From the UHGV virus genome UHGV-0232575: 40,876 nt of DNA, one strand, 5' to 3'. The position numbers and the translations under genes are program-made. The DNA comes from a virus. This document shows, one piece after another, positions 5,406-32,923 of this stretch; position 1 is the first letter of the stretch, and the number at the start of each line of letters is the position of its first letter. Below the pieces are notes generated by a model that was not told the DNA's origin, ran no database searches, and was given only the letters and a program-made list of their open reading frames with translations.

Positions 5406-5414
5406 ATTATAACA
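5406..5414 (-). promoter_or_regulatory. Extended -10 promoter (TGTTATAAT) upstream of tal
   Basis: The - strand reads tttttgTGTTATAATgagtatataaat, just after the intergenic hairpin. Confidence 0.45.
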
Positions 5415-7560: not shown

Positions 7561-7569
7561 ATTATAACA
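7561..7569 (-). promoter_or_regulatory. Extended -10 promoter (TGTTATAAT + ACTAGTATAGTAAA box) upstream of dit
   Basis: The - strand reads ttttgTGTTATAATactagtatagtaaatt. Confidence 0.45.
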
Positions 7570-7607: not shown

Positions 7608-10600
7608 TTAAATGTAACCTAAATTACGTCTGTTGTTACGTTGCTGTGTATTATTTAGGTTGTTAAGTTCCTTGTTAAGCTTCTTACCGTCCAATAACAC
7701 ATCTGTATTTTTGGCTAAGATAGCTTGTAATAATTCGTTCTGTTGTTGCATTAAAGCAACCACTGTTGCCAAGTCTGTTGATGTTCCTTGCTTAGGTGTG
7801 TTGCGTTCTTCCTTCACTCCCAATGCTTGTTTAGCTTGGTTAAGCAATGCCATTGCTCTTCCTCGTTTAGCTGGTTCAGTTGGAATGATAAATTCTGGAT
7901 AGCCATTTTCAGCAAGTTTTGCAATTTGTGGACCTTTTGCAATACCACCATTATAATAACCTCTAATCCGTCCACCAGATGGACCCCAACCAGATTTACC
8001 ATAAGGTAAGTCTTGACGCCAGTTAGTATTGTTAAAGAATGCTAGTAATTGGTCATAACCTGAATAAATGTTGCCATGTCCTTTTACCTTGTATGCGTCA
8101 AACGTTTGTGGGATATATTGAAGCAGACCGCGTGCTGGGTTTCCACTTGCGGTGTTGACGTCCCATACTGCTGAACTTTGAACAATCTTTTCATTACCAC
8201 CCGATTCACGTTGAATCTGTGCTAAGATACCATTGATTTCACTTTCACTAGCATTTGCGCCTATTTCTTTGGAAGCTTTGATGACTAATGCACGCCAGTT
8301 ACCATCTACAGGACCGCTAACACGTTCTTCCTCTTCTTTCTTTTTGAATAAGGCTTTCACTTTTTCAGCAAATGCAGTTGTAGCTTTTGTTCCTAAAGCT
8401 TTTGCCATGTCTAGTGCTACGTGTGTTAGACCTCCTAAGTCCATTGCACCCATAATTGCATTTCGTGCTAAGTCTAATGGATTACCTACCCAGTCCATAA
8501 TATCGCCAATGGTTTGTTTTACCTTGTTAATACCATTACCAACAAATGACTTGGTATTGTCCCACATATTGCGAACTCCGTCCATGAAACCAGTTCCTTT
8601 TTTATAGAATGGAATGCGCCCTTTTTGTCCTAATACCATTGATGTTTCTTTGGCATTTAGCACTTGTGTTCCAGCTGGTGCATTCATCATAACGTTTCTA
8701 CCTTTTGGAATCATTGCTTGACCGTTTGGTGCGATTACCATTTCAGCACCACCACCGTCATTTACTACCATAGGTCCGCCTATGTGACCGTCAGTACCGT
8801 TTGCATATTGTGGTACGTCCCATTTAGGAATTTGAGGTGCGCCAAACTTTTCTAACACCCAGTTAGCACCACCAATGATACCATTTACTGGACCACCAAT
8901 TGCACTCAATACCTTATTGAAAATACCTTTAAATGCACCAGTAACATGACCAGCACCCCTACTGATTGCACCTCCTAAACGCTCTGGCAAACTAGTAAAC
9001 CAACGTACAATTGTGTCAATACCACCACTAAATGTGTTTTTAATTCCCTTCCAAAGAGATGAAATAGTTCCTGAAACATTACTTCTAAGGTCACGTGCAA
9101 TGCGTGTTACATTACTGAACCAACCTGAAACAGCACCATTTACATTTGATACACCACCTTTAAAGAAGTTTTTAACAGCTTCCCACATTCCAGAAATTGA
9201 ACCTTTGAATGTTGCGCCAAAACCATTTACACCTTTTAATATTTTACCAAAGAATGAAATATTAATCCAGTTCCAAATTACTTGAATAGCACCCCAAACT
9301 AATTGTTTGATACCGTCCCAGATTAATTTCCAATCACCGTTGAAAATACCTTTAAAGATTTTTGTTGCCCCTTCAATTACATTAAAGAAACCTTCAATCA
9401 AACCAACTACTGAATCAACAAAACTCATTACAATATCAATTGCAATTTTAAAAATTGGTGTTAATAATTCTAACCATTTTTTAATTGCATCCATTATTGC
9501 TTGTCCGTTTTCGTTCCACCACTTAGTTACCTTATCAAAAACAGCGCCTAACCTATCACCAAGTTCTTGAAGCTTAGGCATGATGTAAGGTATTAAGTCA
9601 TCTGCAATGTACTTAATCACAACACCCATAATGTCGCCCGCAACTTTGAAAGATGTACCAAGATATTGCGTTAACTTTTCAAGAATTGGTTGTGCAAACT
9701 CCCACATTTTTTGCAACGCTGGTTGGACCATTGGTAGAATTTTCTTGGTAAAGTTTGTGATACCGTCTGCCATTCCACCAAACATTGGGTTCAATGAGAT
9801 ACCAATTTCATTTCCTAATGCTTTTAATGCTGATTTAAAGGCGTCCATTCCAGTTGTGTTGCTCATTGCGTTGTTCATTGCGTCTTGTGCGCCTTCTACA
9901 TTATCATATGCCATTGATGTATTGTTTAATGACTTGATAACATTTAAGCTGTTATCTTCACCTAATGCGGACCAGATTGTTCCAGCTTTGTTTAATGCTT
10001 CATATTGGTTTTCCATACCTCCAAAGTCACTAATCATTGAACGGATAACGTCCGCTTGTGTTGCTCCACCTTGTTGCCATTGTCTAAACAGTTCTTGTGT
10101 TTGACCGCTGAACATACCTATGTTGTCCTCAAAACGACCATCTGTTAATGAAATAGCCATTTCTTTGATTAAGTCATTGACTTTATCTAAGTTGTATGCG
10201 CCGTTATCTAAACCACTCTGTAACATGTCAAATGTTTGTTCTGCTGTGAAACCAGCTTGACCGAAAATCTGTGAGTATTCAGCCATGTTGTCGCCTAGCT
10301 CGTCTGTTTGGTCAAGACCCAGTTGTGCGCCACGTGCCATCAAGTCCCAAGCATGGTCTGCGTCAATACCAAAGTTGGTCATCATTTTACCAATACCACG
10401 AATAGTTTCGTTAACGTCTGCACCAGTATTTTTAGAAAATGCAATTGCATTACGTGTCATTCGTTGTAACATGTCGTCGTCCATACCGCCCGCACCCATT
10501 ACATTTTGAACACGTATCATTGCTTCTGCTACTTCGTTGATGTCGTCTGAATAACCTTCTGCAACTAATTGGTTAGCTAACCTTGAAACAGCTTGGGCGC

Positions 10601-12101: not shown

Positions 12102-12151
12102 ATTATAGCATTAAAAGTAATGGTTGTGGGTGTTGGTGAAACCAGTGTATA

Positions 12152-18811: not shown

Positions 18812-20539
18812 TTAAACACCAAAGCCAAATGTACCTTGCTCTAACATGTTTTCAAAACTTGAATATCCAAAGTCATAATACATTGCTTCACTCATTGCAT
18901 TTATTAAAGCGTCCAATGAATCAATCTTGTTACGATTCATTTTCTTTTCAATTGCTATGTTGTCAGCAAACTCTTTCATATACGCATTATATATCGCTGT
19001 ATTGAGTAGTGGGTTGTTTTGATGTATTATATCACCTTTGTATATTGCGTCCCTTAGATACTTTGTAGGGGCGTTTAAATACTGTATCCGCTGTGGTACT
19101 TCAATTAGATAGCGTTCACCGAAAACTTCCGCTAGTCGCAAGACTGATTGTGAAGCTTGGTGACCATCATAGAAAATACCTTGTAGGTCCAAATCATATG
19201 TTTCAACAAAATCAACTATCCAGTCGCACATGTCCGCATGGTCAATCAATCCTGATTCTAACTTACTAATTGAAACGATGCCTTCATTTTCATATTGGCG
19301 ATATGGTATTTTGTCCTCTTGAATTTTCTTTTCAATACCTCCAATTGATGAAATGAAACCATGTGTATTTACGAGTAACTTCTCTTCTTCTGCAATTGGT
19401 ATAATCCAGCTAACCGCCGTTATATCTTTTGTTCGTGATAAGTCCATTCCAATAAATACAGGACGTTTTCTAATATCATATTCTTTTGTTGCTTTGATTG
19501 CGTCCCAGCTTTCTTTATCCATGAAACTATCTTGTGAAGCTTGTACCCAGAAGTTCATTTCTTTAGTTAGCCAACCACTCATGTCTCCTTTTGCCTTGTA
19601 CTCTGCCAATGAATTAACTTTATGTTCATACATGGTTTCATACAATTGTGTATTCTCAAACAGTGGGTTTGATTTTATCCAATTGGCTTGGTCATCAACT
19701 TCGCTGATACTATCCATTTCCCAACATAAAGCAAGGTATGCGTCTGCTTCAACCTCTTCATTTAATAGCTTAGTTATAAATGGATATTCTATGCTGTGCA
19801 TTGGTCCATTAAGATTTTTAGTTGTTGTACTAATAATCAAAATCAAACCTTGTGGTTGTTGTGATTGTGAACTTTCCAATACCTCAATTAATGCTGTGCT
19901 TTTTGCTTCTCCGTATTCATCTAATACACCGCAAAGTACGTCTAGTCCGTCTAAACTATCTGCGTCACTTGCTAAAGGTTTAACAGTTGATTCATCTTCT
20001 AAATGTTCAATGTCATATTTGTTTACCTTAGTAATTTTACGCACACTATCACTTGAATTTCTCAATGCTTTCAGCTGTGATTTTAACATACGGAATACAA
20101 TACCAGCTTGTTCTTTAGTATTTGCCCCAGCTACAATCTGTCTTGAAGCTTTTGGATATTGTCCTAAGATGAACTCATACAATGAGATACCAGCAACCAG
20201 GATTGATTTACCGTTTTTACGTGCTAAACTGATATATACTTTTCTGAATCTGCGCATTTTATTACTCTTTTTGCGCCAACCATAGATTAATGCTACAATA
20301 AACTTCTGGAATTTAGCTAGTTTATTTGTCTTTTTACTTTTTGGGTCTGGTAACATTTCAATAAATGCGACTGGTTCATATGTTTCGCTTGGGTCGTAAT
20401 AGTATGGATAAGCTGGGTCTTTTGATTTTTCTAAGTCTTTCTCATGACGTCTAATAGCTTGTTTGATTTTATTACCTACCGGTATTTGATTATCTCTTAT
20501 ATAATTAATATAATCAGCTACAAAATCTATATTATTCAT
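18812..20539 (-). CDS. terL: Terminase large subunit (Terminase_1 family)
   Basis: 575 aa with a Walker A-like LARKNGKS and a C-terminal nuclease region. RBS AAGGAGG. Confidence 0.9.
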   Translation of the reverse strand: MNNIDFVADYINYIRDNQIPVGNKIKQAIRRHEKDLEKSKDPAYPYYYDPSETYEPVAFIEMLPDPKSKKTNKLAKFQKFIVALIYGWRKKSNKMRRFRKVYISLARKNGKSILVAGISLYEFILGQYPKASRQIVAGANTKEQAGIVFRMLKSQLKALRNSSDSVRKITKVNKYDIEHLEDESTVKPLASDADSLDGLDVLCGVLDEYGEAKSTALIEVLESSQSQQPQGLILIISTTTKNLNGPMHSIEYPFITKLLNEEVEADAYLALCWEMDSISEVDDQANWIKSNPLFENTQLYETMYEHKVNSLAEYKAKGDMSGWLTKEMNFWVQASQDSFMDKESWDAIKATKEYDIRKRPVFIGMDLSRTKDITAVSWIIPIAEEEKLLVNTHGFISSIGGIEKKIQEDKIPYRQYENEGIVSISKLESGLIDHADMCDWIVDFVETYDLDLQGIFYDGHQASQSVLRLAEVFGERYLIEVPQRIQYLNAPTKYLRDAIYKGDIIHQNNPLLNTAIYNAYMKEFADNIAIEKKMNRNKIDSLDALINAMSEAMYYDFGYSSFENMLEQGTFGFGV

Positions 20540-20559
20540 ATGTATACCTCCTTATTTAT

Positions 20560-20568
20560 ATTATAGCA
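20560..20568 (-). promoter_or_regulatory. Extended -10 late promoter TGCTATAAT upstream of terL
   Basis: The - strand reads tttttatttATGCTATAATAtaaataaggaggtatacatATG. Confidence 0.55.
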
Positions 20569-20569
20569 T

Positions 20570-20628
20570 AAATAAAAAGACTTAGGTCATGAGTTTATCC
20601 AAAGGGGATAACAAACTTACCTAAGTCA
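20570..20628 (-). terminator. Rho-independent terminator (tandem copy 2), long imperfect hairpin
   Basis: GACTTAGGTaagtttgttatcc...ggataaactcatGACCTAAGTC followed by TTTTTATTT on the - strand. Confidence 0.6.
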
Positions 20629-20688
20629 ACATGATTGAAACTTAATCTCGTTATATACATTATAACATAAAAAATAGTTTCTGTGTGT

Positions 20689-20741
20689 AAATAAAAAGAC
20701 TTAGGTAGTTATTCCCATAAGGCGATAACTAGTCTAAGTCA
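20689..20741 (-). terminator. Rho-independent terminator (tandem copy 1)
   Basis: GACTTAGACTAGTTATcgccttatgggaATAACTACCTAAGTC followed by TTTTTATTT on the - strand. It shares the aaataaaaagacttaggt core with copy 2. Confidence 0.6.
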
Positions 20742-21126
20742 ATTGGTCGCACTGCAACCCTTCTTAAATGATTAAGTGTTGTTATGTGGTTGGCGGACCA
20801 TCCACATACGGACTACCTCACAACACTTAATATAGTTTTGCTCACTTGGTTAAGGCGGTAAGAGCGTGCCTTTTTGTGTTGATTGCTACCCATCTCATGA
20901 TAGCCCTTCTAGTTAGGTTTTCACACCTATGGTTGCGCTACTGTTAAGCATAGTAGTTGCTACTCCTAGTATTATTTTTTACTTAGTTAAGCCCCTAGGC
21001 GGGAGCAAGCTACAACCCAAGCCCGCTAACATGTCAGTAACTTCTACCCAAAAGTTACTCCTGAATTGTAAACCTCAATACAATTCTAAACCTACAAATC
21101 ATCTGGAAGGCGTTTTCCATAAATAC

Positions 21127-21135
21127 ATTATAACA
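21127..21135 (-). promoter_or_regulatory. Extended -10 promoter-like TGTTATAAT directly downstream of terS, facing the non-coding gap
   Basis: The - strand reads caatttgTGTTATAATgtatttatgg. No credible ORF lies downstream before the tandem terminators. Confidence 0.4.
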
Positions 21136-21142
21136 CAAATTG

Positions 21143-21616
21143 CTAACCTTGTGCGCGCATTTTAAGCAATTGACCTAGTGGGTCTTTGCTTTCGTCCTCT
21201 ACTTCTTTTGGTGCTACCAGTTTTAATCTTGAATTGATAGTTAAACCTAAGTCATTCGTTGCGCTTTTGATTTGCTTACTATAACCCATCATAGCGGTTA
21301 CTTTGGGGTTCAGTTTTCCTTCGTTTGTCACTTCACCCTCAATAGACACCTCTTCTGCTAATTTACTATATAAGTAAACGTAGTTACAATAAGAAACCAG
21401 TGTTTGTGAATCTAACTCACTCAGTGGTAATGACCCAGCAAAGTTACCAATTCTTTCCCATTCTGGATATGCACCCCTTAACAACCCCATTGGAAAATAT
21501 GAAAAGTCTAAAGGTTCATAATTATATAAGTTCTCCTCTTCTTTTTTCTTTTGAAATTGTTGTTCTTGTGTTAAATTACCCTGTTGTGCATTTAATAACT
21601 TACGTGGTCTACCCAT
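21143..21616 (-). CDS. terS: Terminase small subunit (P27 family)
   Basis: 157 aa. The MGRPRK N-terminus and size fit P27-type terS. AAGGAGGTG RBS. Associated with HNH and Terminase_1 terL. Confidence 0.8.
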   Translation of the reverse strand: MGRPRKLLNAQQGNLTQEQQFQKKKEEENLYNYEPLDFSYFPMGLLRGAYPEWERIGNFAGSLPLSELDSQTLVSYCNYVYLYSKLAEEVSIEGEVTNEGKLNPKVTAMMGYSKQIKSATNDLGLTINSRLKLVAPKEVEDESKDPLGQLLKMRAQG

Positions 21617-22108
21617 TTAGTTCACCTCCTTATATTTAAAGGTGTATCCTCCACATGTTTTGCGCTTACCTTTTAAAACTTTTACAATTGAACCATCATC
21701 AATTTTCAAATCTCTAGCGCAACCTCTAATTGAATCATACTCAATTCCATTTGAACAAATTATTTGTTTTGATTTTTGTGTTTTCTGCTGTGTTTCAATT
21801 TGTCGTTTGGTTCTTGTTCCATGATTGATATTCTCTTTAGATGTTGACCATTCTAGGTTAGATACAAAATTATTTGTTTTGCATTCATCAATATGGTTTA
21901 CCTGTGGTTTTTTATCTGGGTTTGGTATAAATGCTTCTGCAACTAAACGGTGTACCCTCCTAAAGTGTGCTTTATTATCTTTCCACAATGTAACTGTCTT
22001 ATATCCATCTTTGTCAATATTTTGTTTTAACCGTTTGACGTTGTTATATACATTACCATAGTTGTCAACGTAGTATCTACCTTTAAATTCTAATACATCT
22101 TTCTTCAT
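21617..22108 (-). CDS. HNH homing endonuclease (NUMOD4-HNH_3 type) inserted between the cos-HNH and terS genes
   Basis: YYVDNYGNVYN NUMOD4-like; VNHIDECKTNNFVSNLEW HNH core; C-terminal GYTFKY. The preferred start MKKDV has an AGGAGG RBS. Confidence 0.8.
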   Translation of the reverse strand: MKKDVLEFKGRYYVDNYGNVYNNVKRLKQNIDKDGYKTVTLWKDNKAHFRRVHRLVAEAFIPNPDKKPQVNHIDECKTNNFVSNLEWSTSKENINHGTRTKRQIETQQKTQKSKQIICSNGIEYDSIRGCARDLKIDDGSIVKVLKGKRKTCGGYTFKYKEVN

Positions 22109-22164
22109 TGTATAACCTCCTATATAATATTTAATAGTATAACACATTATATAATAGGTGTCAA

Positions 22165-22393: not shown

Positions 22394-22402
22394 ATTATAG
22401 CA
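22394..22402 (-). promoter_or_regulatory. Extended -10 late promoter TGCTATAAT driving the terS-containing operon
   Basis: The - strand reads tttgTGCTATAATattgttagg. Confidence 0.5.
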
Positions 22403-22543: not shown

Positions 22544-22599
22544 AGGCTGTTTTGAAACTTCGTTTTTAGAATTTTGTGTGAAAAGAAGGAATCTCCGAT

Positions 22600-22680
22600 T
22601 GTAGCCACCAAAAATTTGGCGGGGGGTGTTAAAATTTTCAGCTACCCTCCCTTCGCTTTTGGCGCTATCCCCCTTAAAAT
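22600..22680. other. Candidate cos site: GC-rich tract in an AT-rich genome
   Basis: ccaccaaaaatttGGCGGGGGGTGtt...ctaCCCTCCCttcgcttttggcgctatCCCCC, with a near-palindrome CCGCCAAAtttTTTGGtGG. It lies directly downstream of the cos-type HNH gene. Confidence 0.4.
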
Positions 22681-23075
22681 TATTTATGGTTAGCCCTACC
22701 TGCATTTTTAAAGGAATGAGCGTGCTCCTCTTTATTGTGACAGGATTGGCAAATTGATTCTAAATTATTAATATCTAAACGTTTTTCCCAACCAATTGGT
22801 GTACGTATTTCCTCCACATGGTGGACGATAGTGGCAAGCGTCTTGGTGTGGTCATTGCGTTCACATACTTCACACATTGGATTGATACTTAACTTGTATT
22901 GTCTCATTCGTTTCCATTCACTTGACTGGTAGAACTCTGCATACCTTTTGTTCTGTGGATTAGTGCGCACATACTTATTGTATTGTGTGGCTGTGTTACC
23001 TTTGTGCTTATCACAATACACCTCTGGTTGCTTTACATATTCTCTACATAAAGCAACCTTACACTTCTTATACAT
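22680..23075 (-). CDS. Terminase-associated HNH endonuclease (HK97 gp74-like, cos-cleavage cofactor)
   Basis: 131 aa. CxxC...HH...N...CxxCH zinc-finger HNH pattern (CEVCERN...HHVEE...NLESICQSCHNKEEH). Confidence 0.8.
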   Translation of the reverse strand: MYKKCKVALCREYVKQPEVYCDKHKGNTATQYNKYVRTNPQNKRYAEFYQSSEWKRMRQYKLSINPMCEVCERNDHTKTLATIVHHVEEIRTPIGWEKRLDINNLESICQSCHNKEEHAHSFKNAGRANHK

Positions 23076-32617: not shown

Positions 32618-32809
32618 ATGTTTAGAAAATTGTTCCCAAATGGTTGGCTTATTGATGTAAAGTACAATCCAAATGGGTTTGGTGATATGTATAGTACAAA
32701 TTATAACTATTCAGTAATGATGCAACATGTAGCAAGTGGATTTGTTAGTTTTGAAAACATTGAAACAGCGGGAGAAGTTTTTAAACTTATCGCTAAATAT
32801 GCAAAATAA
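32618..32809 (+). CDS. Hypothetical protein
   Basis: 63 aa from the ATG. The longer ORF from TTG 32585 overlaps the HNH gene. Start is uncertain. Confidence 0.4.
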   Translation: MFRKLFPNGWLIDVKYNPNGFGDMYSTNYNYSVMMQHVASGFVSFENIETAGEVFKLIAKYAK

Positions 32810-32810
32810 A

Positions 32811-32872
32811 AACGACCACCCAATAGAGTAGTCGTTGTGAGTGTCACTTCATGCTGGGAGGAATCAGCATCA
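32811..32872 (+). terminator. Two stem-loops / putative terminator region
   Basis: AACGACcacccaatagagtaGTCGTT and ATGCTGggaggaatCAGCAT, followed by an AT-rich tract. Confidence 0.4.
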
Positions 32873-32923
32873 GTAACTTATAATTTATTATAACATAAAA
32901 TTAAAGTTTTGTGTTGACAAATG

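Follow-up and report, generated by a model that had tools for sequence, protein, structure and literature searches.

The 40,876-nt virus genome UHGV-0232575, referred to below as the window, contains a 603-bp interval (20540-21142, about 1.5% of the genome) between the genes of the small and the large terminase subunits, and this terS-terL gap is the subject of the present analysis. It is flanked upstream by terS (21143-21616, 157 aa; Pfam Terminase_4, E 2e-11) and downstream by terL (18812-20539, 575 aa; Pfam TerL_ATPase and TerL_nuclease), both of which are encoded on the − strand, as are all the genes around the gap. Enterococcus phage records of about 40 kb that match the window number 107; those that were examined are either assigned to Efquatrovirus (IME-EF4, LY0322, phiSHEF4/5) or unclassified, the closest being the unclassified phage Q69 (95%). 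The core of the gap is held by 98 phage records, most of which annotate nothing there while some call short hypothetical open reading frames (ORFs), as in KEN02, and our literature search found no Efquatrovirus transcriptome and no description of the terS-terL interval. A first-pass annotation, made from the sequence of the window, had read the gap as a unit dedicated to transcribing a structured RNA of about 400 nt or, alternatively, as a cohesive-end (cos) or packaging-recognition region insulated by terminators; the features that it listed are present at or within a few bases of where it had placed them, and several of their details are corrected below.

Predicted promoters, terminators and hairpins of the interval

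Read 5' to 3' on the − strand, the gap consists of the terS stop, 7 nt, a promoter (P1), about 430 nt of hairpins, a terminator (T1), a second promoter (P2), about 25 nt, a second terminator (T2), a third promoter (P3), the motif AAGGAGG and the terL ATG. The three promoters are consensus extended −10 boxes and the two terminators are paralogous predicted intrinsic terminators, all on the − strand. P1 (TGTTATAAT, 21127-21135) lies directly after the terS stop, exactly where the first-pass annotation had seen an extended −10, P2 (TGTTATAAT, 20659-20667) lies between T1 and T2 and had been missed, and P3 (TGCTATAAT, 20560-20568) directly abuts the U-tract of T2 and corresponds to the terL promoter that had been proposed downstream of the terminators. 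Each of the three matches TGnTATAAT exactly and at a conserved position, as expected of putative sigma-A extended −10 promoters, and a repeat search of the window groups the −10 boxes as one repeat family. Transcription from P1 would start at about 21120-21124.

T1 (20688-20740; −17.9 kcal/mol, z score −5.0) and T2 (20569-20627; −19.1 kcal/mol, z −5.4) are both long, stable hairpins followed by UCUUUUUAUUU, so that on the transcribed strand each has the hairpin and U-tract of a candidate intrinsic terminator. The 19-mer TAAATAAAAAGACTTAGGT is found exactly twice in the window, at 20569 and 20688, with no other mismatch-free copy, and each copy forms the 3' half and the U-tract of one of the two hairpins. 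The two tandem paralogous terminators of the first-pass annotation are therefore present, whereas P1 and T1 are about 430 nt apart and not the 380 nt that it gave. The predicted RNA from P2 to T2 has its 5' segment at 20628-20651 and the fold of 20566-20654 reaches −22 kcal/mol (z −3.2); it would be a separate transcript. The ribosome-binding site of terL, AAGGAGG, occupies 20540-20553 together with its spacer, and the terL ATG is at 20539. A terminator directly followed by an extended −10 box is also found between late genes at 5406-5414, 7561-7569 and 12102-12110 (− strand), and TGNTATAAT has 17 sites in the window against 4.2 expected, a count that none of 100 shuffles reached. Because terminator-promoter pairs recur at 7561, 5406 and 12102 and TGNTATAAT at 17 sites, the pair of T2 and P3 is one case of the ordinary late-gene punctuation of this phage, and the late region is apparently divided into short units, each of which restarts transcription.

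For comparison with relatives, terS-terL intervals were taken from GenBank phages, IMG/VR contigs and metagenome contigs and reduced to distinct sequences, giving 34 distinct Efquatrovirus gaps and 15 distinct gaps of the sister genus Efemunavirus, a subset of the roughly 100 available genomes being aligned. The 438-nt RNA from P1 to T1 folds better than 100 of 100 shuffles (z −3.3). The opposite strand folds about equally well, so thermodynamics alone cannot pick the strand. On the − strand, the 5' leader carries the weak hairpin A (GGAA/UUCC) and a CCUUCC/CCUCCC tract (21105-21118; present in 21 of the 34 Efquatrovirus gaps); the pairing of hairpin A is not conserved and its 5' GGAA is missing in some relatives. 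It is followed by hairpin B (GAAUUGUA / UACAAUUC, 8 bp; 21063-21086, 25/34) and hairpin C (10 bp, loop GGGU; 21036-21059, 28/34), which together form a domain with a z score of −5.2. The linker GACAUGUUAG (21026-21035) is a recurrent module boundary, right after which the variable modules of relatives start, and deletions and duplications end at (CAT)GTTAG(TAA) repeats, for example in IME-EF4. Module D (20914-21027, 16/34) is modelled as four local hairpins at 21004-21027, 20965-20999, 20938-20956 and 20914-20929, and is the module most conserved in sequence, with 95% column identity over 12 distinct copies. Module E (GGGCUAUCAUGAGAUGGGUAGC; 20885-20906, 14/34) precedes hairpin F (20852-20872, 24/34), which has a conserved 11-nt loop on a stem, AAGGC/GCCUU, that becomes AAGGA/UCCUU in relatives and is weak alone (−4.1 kcal/mol). 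Hairpin G (20772-20830, 26/34; −23.3 kcal/mol, z −4.5) is built from an 11-bp outer stem, a 7-bp inner stem and, to the side, a small hairpin, and ends in a conserved tip, GG-UCCG-CC (UUCG in some), with a UNCG-type loop as its cap. Hairpin H (GGUUGC AGU GCGACC; 20745-20759, 25/34; −6.2 kcal/mol, z −2.9) keeps its pairing through variants of both loop and stem.

Some pairings of the first-pass annotation are replaced by this model. A hairpin is indeed found where it had drawn a 17-bp stem (20768-20836), but the stem consists of the 11-bp outer helix (20772-20782 with 20820-20830) enclosing the 7-bp inner stem and the capped tip of hairpin G, and the TGGT/ACC extension is not the pairing that covariation supports. 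Likewise, in place of GCGGG/CCCGC covariation favours AGCGGGC/GCUUGCU (21004-21027), and the proposed + strand terminator AAGGCG...GCCTTTTT is a weak 5-bp hairpin with no + strand gene upstream, namely hairpin F of the − strand RNA.

Conservation, module turnover and covariation in relatives

The layout of the gap is kept in two genera and its helices are compensated, which answers the check on conservation and covariation that the first-pass annotation had proposed. Efquatrovirus gaps range from 44 to 708 bp; P1 is kept in 32 of the 34, T2 in 33 (with a short form on the same stem base in L041 and L043) and P3 in all 34. At the P1 position TGnTATAAT followed by RTATT is kept while the surrounding bases vary, and both P1 and P3 are also kept in Efemunavirus (IME-EFm1; terL 61-65% identical). 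The gaps of this genus measure 173-951 bp, often have two tandem promoters and their own terminator, and differ almost entirely in sequence from those of Efquatrovirus, a cassette ...CUGAUGUUCAAGGACAUUAUG... being common to both. The layout common to the two genera is terS stop, TGnTATAAT, hairpins, terminator, TGCTATAAT, ribosome-binding site and terL.

Within this frame the hairpin modules of Efquatrovirus, each present in 14-28 of the 34 gaps, are lost or gained in a constant order, and the T1-P2 block is present in 13 of 34. The module content looks like the result of differential deletion, plus some insertion, from a longer array, with breakpoints often at short repeats such as GTTAG(TAA); IME-EF4 has lost P1 and the 5' modules by deletion at a repeat of this type. 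In another deletion variant, L011, ...CTATTAAGT is fused directly to CTTTTTATTTA, so that G, H and most of T1 are gone, apparently by recombination between TTAAGT and CTAAGT. The shortest gaps, of 44 bp, belong to the isolated phage vB_EfaS_Ef6.4 (MK721190) and to the uncultivated virus genome (UViG) L040, in which a small terminator hairpin overlapping the terS stop is followed by TGTTATAAT and the ribosome-binding site, with no hairpin modules. Since the viable Ef6.4 has terminator, promoter and ribosome-binding site only, the predicted RNA is accessory and not essential. In outer relatives (terL 45-52% identical), terS and terL overlap by 8 nt in 7 of the 8 loci examined, the eighth having a different upstream ORF, and the terS-terL interval is thus a derived feature of the clade.

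Two observations concern the Efemunavirus gaps themselves. A hairpin with the conserved 15-nt loop AGUUGGAAACCUUAR (for example in L056 at 1237-1265, L054 at 1668-1693 and L055 at 2213-2239) is carried on unrelated stems, UAGGAG/CUCCUA, GUGAG/CUCAC and GACGG/CCGUC, which suggests that the loop is a recognition site. The junction is also an insertion hot spot in this genus. Between terL and the terminator-promoter pair, L105 (~1240-1760) and L123 (~2310-2870) carry an HNH homing endonuclease gene, equipped with a predicted promoter of its own (TGATATAAT), and L103 (~2080-2345) carries an 86-aa ORF.

Covariation was assessed against 500 shuffles and by slide controls, in which the structure is shifted. 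The sequences are related, so that the shuffle figures overstate significance and should not be taken as probabilities; the stronger argument comes from the slide controls and from the several independent stem alleles, which lessen the problem of kinship without removing it. For the B and C domain (19 sequences), standard pairs make up 95.7% of helix cells, against 22-55% when the structure is slid, and double changes are seen at 6 of 16 pairs, in 35 cells compared to 11.7 in shuffles, none of the 500 being as high. The stem of hairpin B has four Watson-Crick alleles, with double changes at two pairs, and hairpin C has compensatory changes at 4 of 8 counted pairs with 97% of cells paired. In the gap-free alignment of hairpin G (17 sequences), compensatory changes are seen at 11 of 22 pairs and pairing is kept in 98.1% of cells, compared to 36-50% when slid; 0 of 500 shuffles reach the observed value on any measure, and the inner stem is found as five different sequences, all of which pair. 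The local-hairpin model of module D has 3 compensatory pairs (1 of 500 shuffles) and 98.9% paired cells against 25-49% when slid; the compensation comes from a single divergent copy, L065, in three separate helices. A long-range multibranch fold of the same module proposed by RNAalifold was rejected, as it is broken by L065 and L050 at columns where the local hairpins compensate. Compensatory swaps are also seen, on direct reading, in the modules of Efemunavirus. G·U pairs occupy 31 cells at 10 positions and A·C pairs 2 cells, and since the G·U pairs fit only the sense strand, the strand that folds is that of terS and terL.

No ORF on either strand of the gap is conserved across the relatives, in agreement with the first-pass annotation, which had found no credible ORF and had named conserved small ORFs with ribosome-binding sites as evidence that would speak against its RNA. 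ORF lengths vary, or the frames are interrupted, among near-identical relatives, and the one sense ORF with a weak Shine-Dalgarno-like motif is itself variable in length. A 21-codon ORF at the predicted P1 start site is found as ATG-TAA, with ACG, or not at all in relatives, the frame annotated as a 39-aa ORF in KEN02 is closed at codon 18 in the window, as in most copies, and the ORF MGSNQHKK... runs for 26-61 aa depending on a TAG/CAG change in an internal loop of hairpin G. The + strand (20929-21165) has a 78-aa ORF, hydrophobic at its start (MVALLLSIVVATPSII... / MVALLLSIVVATPSIIFYLVKPLGGSK...), that lies antisense to module D and extends into terS; its module D portion shows no synonymous and at least 5 non-synonymous changes over the 12 copies, frameshifts in 4 of the 12, and no good ribosome-binding site or promoter, and on this pattern of changes we judge it to be not coding. 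As far as the alignments tell, what is under selection is the helices and a few loops, and no protein.

The Rfam scan suggested by the first-pass annotation gave no match at gathering thresholds (Rfam 15) in the whole window or in the loci of 16 relatives, a permissive scan of 20400-21300 gave chance-level matches only (E at least 2.7, 15-18 bits against thresholds of 55-120), and ARAGORN found no tRNA or tmRNA. A structured phage RNA in a moron-like unit at this site is thus not previously recognised in Rfam or in the literature that was searched. A pattern scan for hairpin G in 185,579 species genomes gave 14 matches in unrelated, mostly high-GC taxa and none in Enterococcus, which we take as chance, and a search of the phage for a target of the conserved G tip gave two one-mismatch sites, at 8773 and 8836, which 5% of shuffles equal. 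Apart from the promoter −10 boxes, no extra copies of the modules, as would be expected of an origin like that of miniature inverted-repeat transposable elements, were found elsewhere in the window. Eight IMG/VR loci outside Efquatrovirus that carry an 18-mer half-site of the terminator were rejected as unrelated terminators in other contexts.

A candidate non-coding moron and the alternative readings

We favour, with a probability of roughly 55%, the reading that the gap carries a structured RNA transcribed autonomously, as a non-coding moron seated at a terminator-promoter junction. T2 and P3 would end the transcription that arrives from terS and restart it for terL, as part of the general late-gene punctuation, at a junction kept by every relative, and one or two autonomous non-coding transcription units would have been inserted upstream of it. 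Host sigma-A RNA polymerase would start at P1, just past the terS stop, and the transcript would be a sense-strand chain of independently folding hairpins, A to H, of about 430 nt and stopping at T1; read-through of T1 would lead to a stop at T2 (about 550 nt), and P2 would give a further RNA of about 80 nt ending at T2. This supposes that P1 and P2 fire and that T1 and T2 terminate. The hairpin chain is the only possible product of P1, and the proposed cargo of the moron would be a stable, highly structured RNA without coding capacity. The RNA would be accessory, because its modules are individually deletable and one viable phage lacks all of them, and its action during infection would most likely be in trans, for instance through binding to, or titration of, some factor of host or phage that recognises structured RNA. 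The anatomy of the gap, the layout common to two genera, the covariation, the folded strand, the lack of a conserved ORF and the dispensability are the firm parts of this reading, and the trans-acting role is its weakest step. The dedicated unit of about 400 nt put forward by the first-pass annotation gains support from the P1 box in 32 and the predicted terminator in 33 of the 34 gaps, from the compensatory changes, from the sense-strand G·U pairs and from the lack of a conserved ORF.

The unit resembles the morons of lambdoid and HK97-like phages, in which promoter, cargo and terminator are set between genes that are adjacent or overlapping in relatives and which are present or absent among collinear genomes. 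The gap has by sequence a putative promoter and terminators of its own flanking the cargo (P1, T1/T2), and it is present or absent among relatives (44 bp in Ef6.4 and L040, overlapping terS and terL in the distant relatives). It differs from morons in that there is no protein cargo, the cargo being a non-coding RNA of several modules, each of which can be lost.

Several points weigh against the reading of an autonomous RNA. No internal module is universal, and differential deletion from a longer ancestor fits a weak or generic constraint. IME-EF4 and Ec-ZZ2 have modules F, G and H without P1, and because P1 is gone their hairpins can only be part of the 3' untranslated region (UTR) of terS. 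Module D alone is not unusually stable, folding no better than shuffles (z +0.5), the kinship of the aligned sequences inflates the significance drawn from shuffles, and the function of promoters and terminators is read from consensus and conservation. No target, partner or host homologue turned up in the searches for a target of the G tip, for the hairpin G pattern in hosts and for module copies. The first-pass annotation had also named variability or absence in close relatives as a sign against its RNA, and the gap is variable and is absent in vB_EfaS_Ef6.4, which rules out an essential role and is compatible with a selected RNA.

The nearest analogue by position is the RNA that activates the cyclic oligonucleotide-based antiphage signalling system (CBASS), cabRNA. 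This RNA of about 400 nt, structured and rich in hairpins, comes from the terS-terL boundary of the staphylococcal siphophages phi80alpha-vir and phiNM1gamma6 and is sensed by a CBASS cyclase (PMC10686824). Different phages produce unrelated sequences at this place, and the benefit to the phage is described as an open question (PMC10686824). The likeness is one of position only, and the predicted fold would suit an RNA made there; whereas cabRNA lies inside contiguous terS and terL coding sequences, has no promoter or terminator of its own described and depends for its length on the TerS protein (PMC10686824), the enterococcal phage RNA would come from its own non-coding interval with consensus promoters and terminators. 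A more specific form of the trans-acting role, in which the RNA engages host RNA-sensing immunity, as a decoy or modulator of sensors of the CBASS cyclase type, or the packaging machinery, as a TerS-associated RNA, is a speculative and rather unlikely extension. If it held, module turnover and exchange between the two genera would be the trace of an arms race, and the terS-terL boundary would be a general site of immunologically relevant RNA in Gram-positive siphophages, here in a free-standing and genetically separable form. The packaging RNA (pRNA) of phi29 is likewise a structured phage RNA tied by function or position to the packaging machinery, but it is essential, whereas the RNA considered here is dispensable and belongs to a phage with a TerS/TerL-type terminase; phi29 pRNA is presumably among the Rfam families, none of which matched the window.

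Efquatroviruses are among the most often isolated phage-therapy candidates against Enterococcus faecalis, and the interval between two of their best-known genes is blank or filled with spurious short ORFs in about 100 records; annotation pipelines should stop calling hypothetical proteins there. With its own predicted promoter and terminators, the locus is well suited, being clean and separable, to testing how a large structured RNA benefits a phage. Natural deletion variants extend down to full absence, covariation shows which mutations would be informative and, unlike cabRNA, the RNA has no coding overlap and could be deleted or mutated without touching TerS or TerL.

The main rival to an autonomous RNA is a cis-acting architecture of the mRNA, in which the hairpins are elements of the 3' or 5' UTR for stability and processing that set the ratio of TerS to TerL together with the terminator, P1 adding a long-leader terL transcript by read-through. 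It is supported by the phages without P1, such as IME-EF4, which keep F, G, H and T1 behind terS, and by the terminator-promoter junction being the only universal part; since the gaps have no universal module, any stable hairpin seems to do. In phage T7, the RNase III sites between genes are sense-strand hairpins of about 60 nt, irregular and with an internal loop, and hairpin G, with two stems and an internal loop, has the general shape of such a site; here, however, several hairpins stand in a row within a unit that has its own predicted promoter. P1, which would be useless for a UTR role, is kept base by base in 32 of the 34 Efquatrovirus gaps and also in the sister genus, often as tandem copies, P3 right after T2 would feed terL without read-through, and, as in Ef6.4, one terminator hairpin suffices for the protection of a 3' end. 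Moreover, loops are conserved in sequence, namely the G tip, the F loop and AGUUGGAAACCUUAG in Efemunavirus. We therefore regard a purely cis-acting role as unlikely, while taking it more seriously than any other alternative.

The hairpins could also be non-functional debris, the decaying remnants of insertions (morons or homing-endonuclease cassettes that brought promoters and terminators with them) at a permissive junction. The insertion hot spot of Efemunavirus (HNH genes in L105 and L123, the 86-aa ORF in L103), the resemblance of T1-P2 to a duplicated terminator-promoter unit, the frequent deletions between short repeats and the dispensability of the region in Ef6.4 are all in keeping with this. 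Debris would not, however, gather compensatory double changes that keep 96-98% of helix cells paired over independent alleles, nor would it retain a strand-specific excess of G·U pairs or an intact P1 in two genera, and we consider it improbable.

Still less probable is a leader for processive antitermination, by which the P1 transcript would alter RNA polymerase so that it reads through T1, T2 and later late terminators. In the PR'-6S-tR' region of lambda, on which Q acts, an unregulated promoter gives rise to a short non-coding transcript that stops at a terminator before the late genes, and in lambda and in the put system of HK022 conserved stem-loops lie just downstream of the promoter. 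The gap recalls these systems in its short, predicted terminated transcript at the head of the structural genes, in its constitutive-looking promoter and in two conserved 5' hairpins, B and C, just past it, and there would be many late-region terminators to pass. The stem-loop core common to all members that a put-like element would have is nevertheless lacking: B (25/34) and C (28/34) are missing from 6-9 of the 34 gaps in which P1 and the terminator are nonetheless retained, alternative 5' cassettes occur in other phages, and no core element is common with Efemunavirus. In contrast to lambda, P3 and further promoters follow each terminator, making read-through unneeded for late expression, and Ef6.4 lacks the leader wholly.

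Small proteins, including a hydrophobic + strand peptide of a type I toxin-antitoxin system, or an RNA anti-CRISPR (Racr) that imitates a CRISPR repeat of the host, are scarcely credible. Short hypothetical ORFs are annotated in some records, e.g. KEN02, the + strand ORF looks hydrophobic and a stretch of 13 nt across the 5' arm of hairpin B agrees with the E. faecalis CRISPR repeat at 12 of its 13 nt; against these, the ORFs are variable in length or interrupted in near-identical relatives, the + strand ORF shows the substitutions and four frameshifted copies described above, and as good a repeat match arises in 8% of shuffles, while relatives do not conserve it. Mimicry of the CRISPR repeat was accordingly rejected, as was a type I toxin-antitoxin pair, which needs a conserved small hydrophobic antisense ORF, the + strand ORF of module D not being conserved as coding.

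The least probable reading, a DNA-level packaging signal (an alternative cos, a cosB or a TerS-binding site insulated by terminators), has the position next to terS and terL as its sole support and is opposed by the mapped end of IME-EF4, by strand-specific G·U pairs and compensation that indicate a folded single strand and not duplex recognition, by the missing gap in Ef6.4 and by the lack of iterated binding repeats in the gap. The virion DNA termini of IME-EF4 were mapped experimentally (PMC4445525), and they coincide with the ends of its GenBank record, the published 3' terminal sequence being that of the last 20 nt. They lie about 480 bp upstream of the terS start, between an HNH gene and terS and just downstream of the HNH gene, and the homologous position in the window, ~22,580-22,600, is about 1.45 kb from the gap. 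The gap was therefore rejected as the cos site, and with it the packaging alternative of the first-pass annotation. A probable cos site is at ~22,580-22,600, in the non-coding stretch between the HNH gene (22680-23075) and a predicted promoter at 22394-22402; the cohesive-end 9-mer of IME-EF4, TCATCACCG, has chance-level one-mismatch matches only in the window.

Flanking genes and other features of the window

On the − strand, the order of genes around the gap is HNH endonuclease (22680-23075), a 57-aa ORF, an I-HmuI-like HNH homing endonuclease, terS, the 603-bp gap, terL and portal. The I-HmuI-like gene (21617-22147, − strand; NUMOD4, HNH_3 and NUMOD-like domains) abuts the terS start and is patchily distributed, being full-length in LY0322, shorter in KEN02, LOK1 and MSF2, and missing from Q69, heks, phiSHEF4 and IME-EF4.

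Between the divergent late (−) and early (+) modules, the segment 23628-23907 gathers every copy of GAGAACAC that the window has, 8 against 1 expected, lying in both orientations; this cluster is probably an iteron or operator array and possibly a replication origin. A second candidate small RNA is found on the − strand at 32800-32895, between two + strand early ORFs, with TGTTATAAT at 32887-32895, a hairpin loop AUUCCUCC that resembles an anti-Shine-Dalgarno sequence and a strong predicted intrinsic terminator; its 83-nt fold reaches −30.1 kcal/mol (z −5.0).

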